A stretch of DNA of 31,574 bases from Neisseriaceae bacterium. GTDB taxonomy: Bacteria; Pseudomonadota; Gammaproteobacteria; Burkholderiales; Neisseriaceae. Positions 2 through 29,995 of the stretch are shown here, piece by piece. The first letter of the stretch is position 1. Each line of letters begins with the position of its first letter. A program made the position numbers and the translations under genes. The stretch lies in contig JAFWUA010000159.1 in the NCBI GenBank assembly GCA_017518785.1, forward strand, positions 1 to 31,574, written 5' to 3'. A model generated the notes under the pieces. It was not told where the DNA came from. It was given only the letters and a program-made list of their open reading frames with translations, and did not search any database.

Positions 2-343
2 GGTTTTGCTTTGTCATACGATGATTTGATGACTATTAAAATTCCAGTGATTGTTTATCTTAATTATCGTAGGAATAATCATTTTTCGGTTTTAACTGGA
101 ATTAATGCTAAAACAGTTAGTTTAGCAGACCCTAATTGGGGCCATATTACTATGAGTAAAGAGCAATTTATTAAGTCTTGGCATACTACTAATCAAGAGA
201 CTGCCGGAAAGATTTTGGCAATTGTGCCAACTAATGAAGAGATGTTTATATTAAGTAATAGTAATTTCTTTGATAAAAATCCTAAACGCTCAACTGATTT
301 TATTGTGAAACAATTCAAAAAAATTATGCGAAATTTATTTTAA
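2..343 (+). CDS. C39 family peptidase-like protein, C-terminal part (5' end outside window)
   Basis: Frame is open from the window edge (GFALSYDDL...). IPVIVYL, NHFSVL, VSLADPNWG and GKILAIVP match the His/Asp half of C39 peptidase domains. It stops right after the domain. Confidence 0.75.
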   Translation, partial: GFALSYDDLMTIKIPVIVYLNYRRNNHFSVLTGINAKTVSLADPNWGHITMSKEQFIKSWHTTNQETAGKILAIVPTNEEMFILSNSNFFDKNPKRSTDFIVKQFKKIMRNLF

Positions 344-811
344 TTTATATATTCCGCTATTATCTATTTGTTTTGCAATTTCAGATATTTTTGTGCCATT
401 GATACAATAATCTGGTGCAATTTCCAATAAAGGTAGGATTACAAAAGAACGTTCAATTGCACGAGGGTGAGGAAGTGTGAGTTTGGGGTCATTACTATTT
501 TCATTGGCATAGTCGATAATATCCAAATCCAAAGTACGAGGGGAATTTGTAAATAATCTTACTCTGCCGGAAATATTTTCTATATGTTGTAAGTGTGAGA
601 GTAAATCGTATTTGTCTAAATCGGTTTCTAATAATGTTACTGCATTTATAAAATCAGGTTGGTCAAGATAGCCTACTGGTTTGCTACAATATAGCGATGA
701 TACTTTGATAATACTGCTTTCCGGCAGACTTTGTAATTGTAAGATAGCATCGTAAATATGTTGTTTGGGATTATCTAAATTACTACCCAATGCAATAACA
801 GCTTGTTTCAT
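335..811 (-). CDS. folK: 2-amino-4-hydroxy-6-hydroxymethyldihydropteridine diphosphokinase
   Basis: IALGSNL, QPDFINAV, PRTLDLDII and LTLPHPR motifs. The ATG at 811 overlaps the pcnB stop (ATGA), so the track's longer start at 949 is unlikely. Confidence 0.95.
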   Translation of the reverse strand: MKQAVIALGSNLDNPKQHIYDAILQLQSLPESSIIKVSSLYCSKPVGYLDQPDFINAVTLLETDLDKYDLLSHLQHIENISGRVRLFTNSPRTLDLDIIDYANENSNDPKLTLPHPRAIERSFVILPLLEIAPDYCINGTKISEIAKQIDNSGIYKLK

Positions 812-2142
812 GTTGTTTGTTCCGTGTTTTTTGTTGTTGCTTTTTTTCGTCTGGTGCGTTTTTTTGTTTTTTTGGGAGTGTTTTCTTGTGGTGGAAAAAG
901 CATTTTTTCGCGTTCTTCGCTTGATGCCTTTTGGAAATCTGTCCACCATTGTGCCTTTTCTGCGGAAGCGTTATCGCTTTGGGCACGCAATAGATAAAAA
1001 TCATAAGCAGCACGAAATGATGGTTGTGATAATAAACGTAATGGACGTTTGCCTTTGATTATTTCTAATTGTGGTTGTAATTTCCATATTTCACGCATCA
1101 TTGATAATAAACGACGTGGCATTCCCCAATCGGATTCATTATCGTTAATAACTTGTTTAATCGCAGTTTGCATGGCAGGGGAAGGCGGCATTCCTTGTGC
1201 AATGTTTTGTTGTTGTTGTTTTTCAACTTCTGACCATAGCATTGCTGCTAAAACAAATGATACTGCTACTGGTTTATCTTGTTGGACGCGTTCATCGGTT
1301 TTGATTAGTACTGTGTGTAAAAAATGTTTTCCGGCAGACTGTTTTGCATTGTCAGCAATGGCAAAAATTGGGTGAATATTTATAGGTATTCCTAATTCTT
1401 CTAACTGTAAAAAGCATTTGTATGCACGAGAACATAGAAGTTCTTTGCTGATTTCATCAAAGATACGTGCAGCTGGTTCTGCTTTTAGTAAGTGAGCATG
1501 TGTGCGTATGGCATCTTTAATATTGTTACTAATTTCAAAATCTAATTTAGAAGATAATCTTACAGCACGAAGCATACGCATTGGGTCTTCACGGAAACGT
1601 TCGGTAGGATTACCTATCATTACTAATCGGCGATTGTTAATGTCATTTAATGCACCAACGTCATCGAAAATTAATTCTGAAACAGGGTCGTAATAAAGTG
1701 CGTTGCAGGTGAAATCTCGTCTTTGTGCATCGCTTTGACGCGTGCCAAAGGTATCATCACGCATGATGCGTCCGTGTTCGTTGTGTGTGTTGGTATTACC
1801 ACGAAATGTGGTAATTTCTACGATTTCTTTTCCGACAAATACATGTACAATCGGAAAACGTTTGCCAATAATTCGACTTCTTCTTTTAAATACTTTGCGA
1901 ATTTCATCTGGGGTAGCATTGGTTGCCACATCAAAATCTTTTGGTTTGCGTTCTAATAGTAAATCTCGTACCGCACCTCCTACTATATAGGCTTCGAATC
2001 CAGCTTGATGCAAAAGATTTACGGTTTTTTTTGCTGCCAAACTTAACATATTTGAGCGTAAATTATGTTGGGTTCGATCTAATTTCTGCGGATGAGGATT
2101 GTTGGTTTTACGCAGAATTTTTCTTATAACTCTTTTAATCAT
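808..2142 (-). CDS. pcnB: Poly(A) polymerase I
   Basis: VGGAVRDLLL...KDFDVAT, PAP signature IIGKRFPIVHV, DAQRRDFTCNALYY, RFREDPMRMLRA, FRAAYDF and a basic C-terminal tail. Confidence 0.93.
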   Translation of the reverse strand: MIKRVIRKILRKTNNPHPQKLDRTQHNLRSNMLSLAAKKTVNLLHQAGFEAYIVGGAVRDLLLERKPKDFDVATNATPDEIRKVFKRRSRIIGKRFPIVHVFVGKEIVEITTFRGNTNTHNEHGRIMRDDTFGTRQSDAQRRDFTCNALYYDPVSELIFDDVGALNDINNRRLVMIGNPTERFREDPMRMLRAVRLSSKLDFEISNNIKDAIRTHAHLLKAEPAARIFDEISKELLCSRAYKCFLQLEELGIPINIHPIFAIADNAKQSAGKHFLHTVLIKTDERVQQDKPVAVSFVLAAMLWSEVEKQQQQNIAQGMPPSPAMQTAIKQVINDNESDWGMPRRLLSMMREIWKLQPQLEIIKGKRPLRLLSQPSFRAAYDFYLLRAQSDNASAEKAQWWTDFQKASSEEREKMLFPPQENTPKKTKKRTRRKKATTKNTEQTT

Positions 2143-2198
2143 AGTGTTTAATTTATTAATTTAAGTTACTTTTATAATTTTTAAAGTCTGCCGGAAAT

Positions 2199-28042: not shown

Positions 28043-28137
28043 TATAACTTGATATTTATAGTCGATTTGTAGCAAAAATAATCAATAGTGTGTGCTTTGT
28101 TATAAATAGATTAAATTTTTATGATTTTATTAATATT

Positions 28138-29058
28138 ATGATTCAGCAATTAAGTGCAATACTTTTTATTTTATTACCGCTATTTGTAGGATTTTGTATT
28201 TCATTTTCAAATAAAAAATACATGATAGCTCTTAATCGTATTATTAATTTTACTGTCAATATTATTTTATTATTAATTGGAGTAAGTTTATCGCATTTAT
28301 CTAATGCTAATATAGCATTGATTAAAATTCCTATATATGCTGCAATTTTTCTATGTATAACGCTTATTGTTAATGGTTTTTGTATAGCAATATTTGATAA
28401 ATATTTTCCATGGAAGCATTTGCAACAATCTGAATCATGTGAAAAAACAAATTCATTCATTTGGCAAGATACAGTTAAGCAATTGGGAATAGTTGCAATA
28501 GGTTGGTTATTAGGTAAATTATTCCCACCATTAATTTCTTTAATGGAAGGTGCAATAAATTATTTATTAATGTTGCTGCTGCTTTTAATTGGTATACAGT
28601 TGCGTAGTAGTGGTATTAAACTTCATCAAGTTTTATTAAATAAAAGAGGTGTTGTTTTAGCAATATTATCCGTAATAGCTACTTTAATCGGAGCAATAAT
28701 TGCCGGTATGATTATTGGGATTCCGATATTGCAAAGCCTTGCTTTGGGTTCCGGTTTTGGTTGGTACTCGCTTTCCGGCAGTGTTTTAACTCATGCTTAT
28801 GGCGCGTTTTGGGGGACTGTTGCACTGTTAAATGATTTGGGACGAGAGATATTTGCCCTTATTTTTATTCCGACTTTAATGAAACGTTATCCATCAGTGG
28901 CTATTTCTACTGGAGGTGCTACTGCGATTGATTTCACGCTCCCTACAATTTTACGTTCTGGCGGAGTAATGGCTGTTCCATTTGCGGTGAGTTATAGTTT
29001 TATTATCAATGTGTTATCTCCAATATTGATGATTGTTTTTTCCGGCAAAGTGATTTGA
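28138..29058 (+). CDS. Lysine exporter LysO (YbjE) family membrane protein
   Basis: GSGFGWYSLSG, LNDLGREIFAL and GGATAIDFTLP; start taken at ATG 28138. Confidence 0.88.
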   Translation: MIQQLSAILFILLPLFVGFCISFSNKKYMIALNRIINFTVNIILLLIGVSLSHLSNANIALIKIPIYAAIFLCITLIVNGFCIAIFDKYFPWKHLQQSESCEKTNSFIWQDTVKQLGIVAIGWLLGKLFPPLISLMEGAINYLLMLLLLLIGIQLRSSGIKLHQVLLNKRGVVLAILSVIATLIGAIIAGMIIGIPILQSLALGSGFGWYSLSGSVLTHAYGAFWGTVALLNDLGREIFALIFIPTLMKRYPSVAISTGGATAIDFTLPTILRSGGVMAVPFAVSYSFIINVLSPILMIVFSGKVI

Positions 29059-29122
29059 TATATTTGTTAGTTGAGTGTGTGATGTGATATATTTTAATTT
29101 TCTAATTTTTTATTAAAAACTT

Positions 29123-29995
29123 ATGGCTTTTGCATCTCTTTTAACCTTATTAGATGATATTGCTACGACTCTTGACGATGTAGCAGTTATGACTAAATTA
29201 GCTGCCAAAAAAACGGTTGGCATAGTTGGTGATGACTTGGCTGTTAATGCCGAGCAAGTGATTGGTTCAACCGCAGATAGAGAATTGCCGATTGTATTTA
29301 AGGTTGGAATTGGTTCTTTAATCAATAAAGTTATTTTGGTTCCTTTGGCTTTGTTAATTTCAGCCATTGCACCTTGGTCAATTTCCGGATTGTTGATAAT
29401 TGGTGGTTGTTATTTATCATTTGAGGGTGCCGAAAAAATTCTCGACTTTCTGCATAAAAAAAGTAGTAAATCGTCAGAAACCAATATTACAAATTTTGAT
29501 GAAAAAACACGTATTAGAGGTGCTATTCGTACTGATTTTGTGCTATCAACTGAAATTATTGTAATTGCTTTAGGAGTTATTTCAGGCAGTCTATTAGAAA
29601 AAGCATTGGCATTAAGTATTATTGCTATTTTAATGACTGTTGGTGTATATGGGCTTGTAGCTTGTATTGTTAAAATAGATGATGTTGGATTGTGGCTAAT
29701 TAGAAAGCCTTTTGCAATAGCAAAATTAGTGGGACATTTTTTTGTATCGTTGATGCCGTATATTATGAAGTTTCTTACAATTGCCGGTACAATTGCAATG
29801 TTAATGGTTGGCGGAAGTATTATTCTGCATAATGGCTTACATAATATTGCTCACTCTTTGGAATCAATTTCTCCTCATTGGTTAGAGGTTTTATTGTCAT
29901 CTTTGATAGTACCTATTGTAGTTAGTTTTATTGTGGGATTAATTTTAATTGGTGTTGTAAAATTAAAGGAAAAAACTTTTTCCGGCAGTGTATAG
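29123..29995 (+). CDS. DUF808 (YedI-like) inner membrane protein
   Basis: LLTLLDDIATTLDDVAVMTK, GIVGDDLAVNA, RELPIV, GAIRTDFVLS and AMLMVGGSI. Confidence 0.9.
   Translation: MAFASLLTLLDDIATTLDDVAVMTKLAAKKTVGIVGDDLAVNAEQVIGSTADRELPIVFKVGIGSLINKVILVPLALLISAIAPWSISGLLIIGGCYLSFEGAEKILDFLHKKSSKSSETNITNFDEKTRIRGAIRTDFVLSTEIIVIALGVISGSLLEKALALSIIAILMTVGVYGLVACIVKIDDVGLWLIRKPFAIAKLVGHFFVSLMPYIMKFLTIAGTIAMLMVGGSIILHNGLHNIAHSLESISPHWLEVLLSSLIVPIVVSFIVGLILIGVVKLKEKTFSGSV

Follow-up and report, generated by a model that had tools for sequence, protein, structure and literature searches.

Whether the DNA uptake sequence (DUS) dialects of the Neisseriaceae have to keep the trinucleotide CTG is the question raised by the 12-mer AGTCTGCCGGAA, which recurs throughout a 31,574-bp stretch of DNA (the window) from a Neisseriaceae bacterium. 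CTG is conserved in all eight dialects described by Frye et al. (2013, PMC3630211), and transversions in this core nearly abolish transformation of N. meningitidis (PMC3630211). A 2025 modelling paper also describes the DUS core as strictly conserved, and the invariant CTG has been used to argue for one mechanism of ComP-DNA recognition (PMC12061091). We propose that AGTCTGCCGGAA(A) is, with high probability, a DUS derived from the Simonsiella dialect simDUS by two substitutions, G3T and T9G, in a two-species clade of low GC content (34-36%), and that CTG has become CGG in it. The proposal was built from sequence data on the abundance and conservation of the word, its phylogenetic restriction, its register on simDUS, its DUS-like behaviour, and the ComP paralogs and competence genes of the host.

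The window is contig C120 of the metagenome-assembled genome (MAG) G000, which has 162 contigs totalling 1.09 Mb, a completeness of 58% and a GC content of 36.4%. It holds 21 exact copies of AGTCTGCCGGAA (11 on the plus and 10 on the minus strand), where dinucleotide shuffling gives an expectation of 0.00, and 39 copies of the core CTGCCGGAA, with an expectation of 0.07. These values reproduce the counts given in a preliminary description of this DNA. Across G000, 841 exact 12-mers were found (418 plus, 423 minus; about 0.05 expected by base composition), together with 1348 CTGCCGGAA cores and 755 copies of AGTCTGCCGGAAA. At each k from 8 to 14, the top k-mers of the genome are this word and parts of it, so the over-representation suspected from one contig holds genome-wide. 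The density is about 1.2 per kb on nearly all contigs, amounting to about 1.5% of the DNA. For each logo, one half of the motif served as the anchor and left the other half unbiased, which gave the following conservation in G000:

Position 1: A, 86%.
Position 2: G, 72%.
Position 3: T, 76%, or A, 22%.
Positions 4-12: 93-99% conserved.
Position 9: G, 93%; T, 2.6%.
Position 13: A, 82-86%.

A minority form, ACACTGCCGGAA, accounts for about 10% of the cores (AACA 95, TACA 23 and CACA 15 of 1348) and makes hairpins and arrays of its own, for example the window pair 11741/11769. The commonest form, including its 5′ A, is AAGTCTGCCG; reversed without complementing, it gives exactly GCCGTCTGAA, the canonical 10-mer DUS, and a reversed control pattern therefore matched often in Neisseria genomes. 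We know of no mechanism for this likeness, which is probably a coincidence.

The distribution of the word was examined in 176 Neisseriaceae species representative genomes. GTCTGCCGGAAA was abundant only in G000 (801 copies) and in its congener G004 (992 copies; GC 34%; 88% nucleotide identity to G000 over syntenic DNA), and the remaining genomes had at most four copies each, G006 aside. The search of family genomes called for in the preliminary description thus placed the bulk of the copies in two species. Congener dialects were determined from k-mers counted de novo in 12-57 kb of each congener. simDUS was found in G002, G003, G005, G006 and G007, mostly as the sim/king dyad except in G002, and kingDUS in G001; the dyad form has been described for Simonsiella muelleri (PMC3630211). 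The dialects are congruent with phylogeny, with the word in two sister species, simDUS or kingDUS in their congeners and canonical DUS in other family genomes. The host clade sits within an uncultured, ruminant-associated Neisseriaceae genus whose other members use simDUS or kingDUS, and this DNA occurs in sequencing runs of bovine and sheep (gut) metagenomes that several studies produced. In G006, a simDUS MAG with 7% contamination, 34-37 words of the new dialect are concentrated on short contigs (C1, C90, C117, C123, C201, C216, C299 and C315). Transfer between dialect groups was considered for these copies and rejected, because the short contigs and the contamination make mis-binning likelier.

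The word is none of the 11 dialects in a 2025 survey of 177 complete Neisseriaceae and Pasteurellaceae genomes, which added three dialects to the known ones (bioRxiv 10.1101/2025.10.24.684340); all eleven keep CTG. Because the survey took complete genomes, it could not see a lineage represented by MAGs only. In a full-text literature search, the matches listed for the word and parts of it were primers and unrelated sequences, none of them on DUS. The earlier suspicion that the dialect is undescribed therefore stands. The closest relative is AG-simDUS (AGGCTGCCTGAA, Simonsiella muelleri), which has 10 of 12 bases in common with the word and a like 3′ GAA(A) tail, less conserved 5′ extension and density (about 1.2 per kb), and which is carried by congeners of G000 at the same orthologous sites. 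The new word differs in having T (or A) for G at position 3 and G for T at position 9, and it no longer makes the 15-bp sim/king dyad TTCAGGC(A/T)GCCTGAA. The canonical DUS of Neisseria (AT-DUS, ATGCCGTCTGAA) differs in sequence and lacks the CGG core, but it is likewise a 12-mer with a strongly conserved core of 9-10 nt that occupies about 1.5% of the genome, lies on both strands, forms inverted-pair terminators, favours certain reading frames and occasionally forms tandem arrays. aniDUS, vitDUS and vit3DUS were likewise recognized as extra dialects from k-mer over-representation in ComP-encoding genomes; they keep CTG at +6 to +8, whereas the new word does not. We regard the word as a real, lineage-restricted DUS dialect descended from simDUS, with CGG where described dialects have CTG, and we infer by homology that it biases DNA uptake. 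None of the computational findings that the preliminary description had named as grounds for rejection (no genome-wide excess, no comP or competence genes, a dialect already published) was encountered.

The descent from simDUS was traced in a MAFFT alignment that set window positions 2151-10000 against their syntenic counterparts in G004, G007, G003 and G002. At two orthologous sites, 2185 and 8631, AGTCTGCCGGAA falls on AGGCTGCCTGAA base for base. The informative sites are:

2185..2196, plus strand: lone copy between genes, at the rodA 3′ end, base for base on the sim/king dyad of G003 and G007.
8631..8642, minus strand: in-frame copy in gatA, variant AGACTGCCGGAA; the same codons in G002 hold the simDUS TTCAGGCAGCCT.
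3328..3336, minus strand: core at the mrdA/rodA junction, in a gappy alignment to the sim/king dyad of G003 and G007.

This overlay, together with the presence of simDUS in congeners, indicates that the register with G3T and T9G is real, as had been proposed from the window. In the homologous register, the canonical CTG at positions 8-10 (+6 to +8 of the 10-mer) reads CGG, the T at +7 in the 10-mer numbering of Frye having changed to G. The earlier claim that the word breaks the CTG core is correct for this CTG, but simDUS holds two, at positions 4-6 and 8-10, and the new word keeps the one at 4-6 at 97-99%. Not all sites were converted in place: at window 9272 and 9599, where G002, G003 and G007 keep simDUS sites, G000 and G004 show decayed, AT-rich sequence, and many word sites are new, being common to G000 and G004 only. 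G000 also retains 42 simDUS and 37 kingDUS 12-mers, dispersed on native contigs. An intermediate spelling, AGGCTGCCGGAA, with G at both positions 3 and 9, occurs at 325-338 of L159, a contig from another sample that encodes an 89%-identical ComP-B, and in six copies in G000. The idea that T9G was driven by a new CCGG methylation or restriction site found no support: the observed/expected ratio of CCGG outside the motif is 0.95, with no avoidance.

The second CTG raises another explanation, that the receptor reads the invariant CTG at positions 4-6 (AGT-CTG-CCGGAA) and that the downstream flank alone has changed. The functional core would then be conserved, since simDUS too has CTG at 4-6. The 97-99% conservation of these positions in the new motif is consistent with such a shift, as is the presence of GTCTG at the centre of the canonical GCCGTCTGAA. 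However, the orthologous sites align unshifted, kingDUS congeners have CAG at 4-6 and their sole CTG at 8-10, and positions 4-12 are equally conserved, hence 4-6 is not singled out. We consider a shifted register unlikely.

A working CGG dialect would also require a host with an uptake machinery. G000 encodes DprA, PilQ, PilF and PilT/PilU, and ComEC is intact in G004, G007 and G002, so that the expected comP and competence genes are present, ComEC in the sister species. Matches to the Pfam family ComP_DUS (PF16732) were found in three open reading frames (ORFs) of G000:

Contig C39: ComP-A (P0001), 157 aa, 4 Cys.
Contig C40 (L001): ComP-B.
Minor-pilin cluster: third ComP_DUS ORF, a weaker, PilE-like match.

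ComP-B (as P0005) scored 38.0 bits and ComP-A (P0001) 33.6 bits, over the family cut-off of 27.3, and both paralogs combine a class III signal peptide/N-methyl motif with the ComP_DUS domain. Phylogenetic analysis covered 47 ComP-like pilins, taken from 8 genomes of the genus and 24 others of the family. Groups A and B of the genus formed one clade inside the ComP clade (Shimodaira-Hasegawa-like approximate likelihood ratio support 94), separate from the second pilin found beside comP in other genera, indicating a genus-specific duplication. Group B is nearer to the solved ComP structures (the congener protein P0003 matched 2nba at E 1e-16 and 2m3k at 2e-13) than group A, which matched them more weakly (1e-4 and 0.02). 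An AlphaFold model was built for the intact ComP-B only, with a predicted local distance difference test score of 85.8. Its best PDB matches were 5hz7 (E 1.4e-7, TMq 0.66, root mean square deviation 2.2 Å) and 2nba, and the model thus predicts a ComP-fold minor pilin, as for the canonical DUS receptor. The paralogs are patchy in the genus: G003 (99% complete) has A only and G006 has B only. The K94 equivalent of ComP is Arg in three of four group B proteins, including that of G000, and the R78 equivalent is lost in every ComP of the genus regardless of dialect. The search for comP suggested earlier thus succeeded, but these residues do not discriminate dialects.

Selection on the two paralogs was compared by the ratio of nonsynonymous to synonymous substitution rates (dN/dS). 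The values for comP-B (0.05-0.13) indicate purifying selection. Between G000 and G004, comP-A is far more divergent (67% amino-acid identity, dN/dS 0.26) than nine housekeeping genes (about 94% and 0.05). The syntenic contig of G004 stops at the comP-B spot, and L159 does not map to G004. A conserved ComP-B would fit a dialect shared by both species slightly better than ComP-A, P0006, one of the intact ComP-B proteins from other samples, being without assignment to G004. The diverged ComP receptor expected in the preliminary description was thus found in the sense that divergent ComPs exist, but there are two of them and neither is singled out as the reader.

Several observations weigh against a working CGG dialect. 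Canonical ComP has a DD region bounded by two disulfides among four conserved Cys (C76-C125 and C118-C139; PMC4906244), which is thought to confer specific DNA binding. In every ComP of the genus, the β1 Cys and one Cys of the DD loop are absent and this part is shorter by about 14 residues, indicating loss of the DD region by which PMC4906244 defines ComP. Group A carries another, additional pair of Cys, in the β1-β2 loop and β2. No residue separates the dialect groups in the ComP alignment of the genus. Since core transversions nearly abolish transformation in N. meningitidis, a working CGG core needs a changed receptor. ComEC was not found in G000, which is 58% complete. Moreover, comP-B of G000 carries an in-frame TGA at the Trp of the conserved NSTTWP (plus-strand position 825 of L001).

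The last two points, together with a genome that may be reduced (about 1.1 Mb recovered at 58% completeness), would suit a fossil signal, in which the word was spread by past uptake and the lineage has since become non-transformable or unselective. However, the contigs of four ruminant metagenome runs from four studies have C at the TGA site, which restores TGG (Trp), and intact 138-aa ComP-B proteins occur in other samples (P0005, 99% identity, on a contig with seven new-dialect cores; P0006, 89%). The TGA is therefore no property of the lineage but a mutation of this strain or an assembly error, and on the same evidence the idea that the canonical ComP was lost and its paralog took over was rejected for the lineage. 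The low dN/dS of comP-B, the intact ComEC of G004, the 93-99% conservation of the core positions and the retention of nearly all sites by both sister species also argue against decay. We regard a fossil signal as quite improbable. comP-B is followed by a terminator-like hairpin that consists of a sim/king dyad of the old dialect, CCCTTTCAGGCAGCCTGAAAGGG (L001 214-248; L160 5255-5285), on a contig that otherwise carries the new word.

On balance, we give even odds to the stronger statement that CTG is no universal need of ComP-dependent uptake and that the CGG word is read by one of the two DD-less paralogs. Judging by homology with Neisseria, uptake would begin with a minor pilin of the ComP type, carried on type IV pili, that binds the word in double-stranded DNA outside the cell. 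Pilus retraction by PilT would draw the DNA through PilQ, and ComEC with DprA/RecA would bring about its integration. Biased uptake and recombination may then spread and keep the word by molecular drive, and its inverted pairs may have been co-opted as transcription terminators.

The placement of the copies agrees with the published behaviour of DUS. Of the 841 exact copies, 563 (67%) lie outside ORFs, in the non-coding 16% of G000, and 278 (one third) are coding, with SLPE (103) and SGRL (65) as favoured frames. Inverted pairs within 60 bp number 212 in G000 (137 plus/minus and 75 minus/plus). The six intergenic pairs noticed earlier in the window were all located at gene 3′ ends, with folding energies of -22 to -26 kcal/mol and z values of -5 to -7, and the in-frame copies in mreC, pepN and proC were likewise recovered, with others in pcnB and an rsmI-like gene. 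The window features are:

8300..8327: inverted 12-mer pair 8300/8316, a terminator-like hairpin directly after ORF 8012-8299 (-21.9 kcal/mol, z -5.3).
10601..10640: inverted pair 10601/10629 after ORF 10019-10585 (-24.9 kcal/mol, z -7.0).
11741..11777: inverted pair 11741/11769, core only, variant ACACTGCCGGAA, between the convergent ORFs 11247-11711 and 11784-12677 (-23.9 kcal/mol).
13889..13925: inverted pair 13889/13914 downstream of pepN (13966-16617, minus strand).
26578..26615: inverted pair 26578/26604 just after the 1199-aa ORF 22971-26570 (-25.5 kcal/mol).
28005..28042: inverted pair 28005/28031 between ORFs 26781-27527 and 28090-29058 (-25.8 kcal/mol).
5857..5868, minus strand: in-frame copy in mreC, common to the sister G004 and absent in simDUS congeners.
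14728..16132: three exact copies within pepN, at 14728 (minus), 15260 (plus) and 16121 (plus).
20406..20417, plus strand: in-frame copy in proC.

Head-to-tail arrays were also found, 20 in G000, with 3-12 copies at periods of 13-22 bp. Many of them lie at contig ends and are therefore probably longer.

Example arrays in G000: C9:12-141, C91:4313-4446, C151:11-182 and C54:1-129.

Such arrays likewise occur in G004 (for example C106:12043-12328), and canonical DUS makes like arrays in 14 of 98 Neisseria species. In contrast, no simDUS-core arrays were found in the six other congeners with a pattern that did not cover kingDUS-core arrays. It is hardly credible that the word is instead a terminator, an element like repetitive extragenic palindromes (REP) or miniature inverted-repeat transposable elements (MITE), or a binding site for a protein with no part in transformation. 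The intergenic two thirds and the many copies in hairpins or arrays would suit this, but one third are single in-frame copies in several frames of housekeeping genes, strand skew is absent in the 31-kb window, congeners carry an accepted DUS dialect to which the word is homologous by position and by sequence, and canonical DUS has like hairpins and arrays.

If the dialect guides uptake, it may also separate its hosts from simDUS species. The 5′ part of metG (window 30668-31574) lacks the new word and carries sim/king DUS instead, placed as in G004, G003 and G006, including this feature:

31479..31493: old-dialect sim/king dyad TTCAGGCTGCCTGAA in metG, which those three genomes also have in this place.

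The identity of this part to simDUS species is 90-91%. Here, G000 is 84-95% identical to G003 and only 80-88% identical to its sister G004, and in the genes beside metG the identity of G000 to simDUS species is 72-78%. These values suggest an exchange across dialect groups, so that any transformation barrier, as had been inferred from the motif, would be leaky, metG having kept the dialect of simDUS species.

Other features of the genome were recorded. A miniature repeat of about 130 bp lies at window positions 10650-10805, 13540-13840 and 27770-27915 and has dozens of copies in G000, G004, G007, G001 and G003; it probably accounts for the second frequent k-mer family, CGAGTTTTGCA and ACTCCTGCAAAAC. 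G000 is depleted in the palindromes GCGC, GGCC and CTAG (about 15-20-fold) and in GATC (about 4-fold), which suggests strong restriction-modification pressure.

Because surveys took cultured organisms and complete genomes, the diversity of DUS has been under-sampled. In practice, dialect words can serve as sharp markers both of contamination in MAGs, as in G006, and of cross-species imports, as in metG. If the CGG word is indeed a working uptake signal, the new dialect and its simDUS sister species would represent a natural two-substitution specificity switch for mapping the ComP-DUS code. A CGG dialect beside simDUS sisters, with short, DD-less and duplicated ComPs amenable to in vitro expression, would thus be a compact system for residue-to-base recognition.

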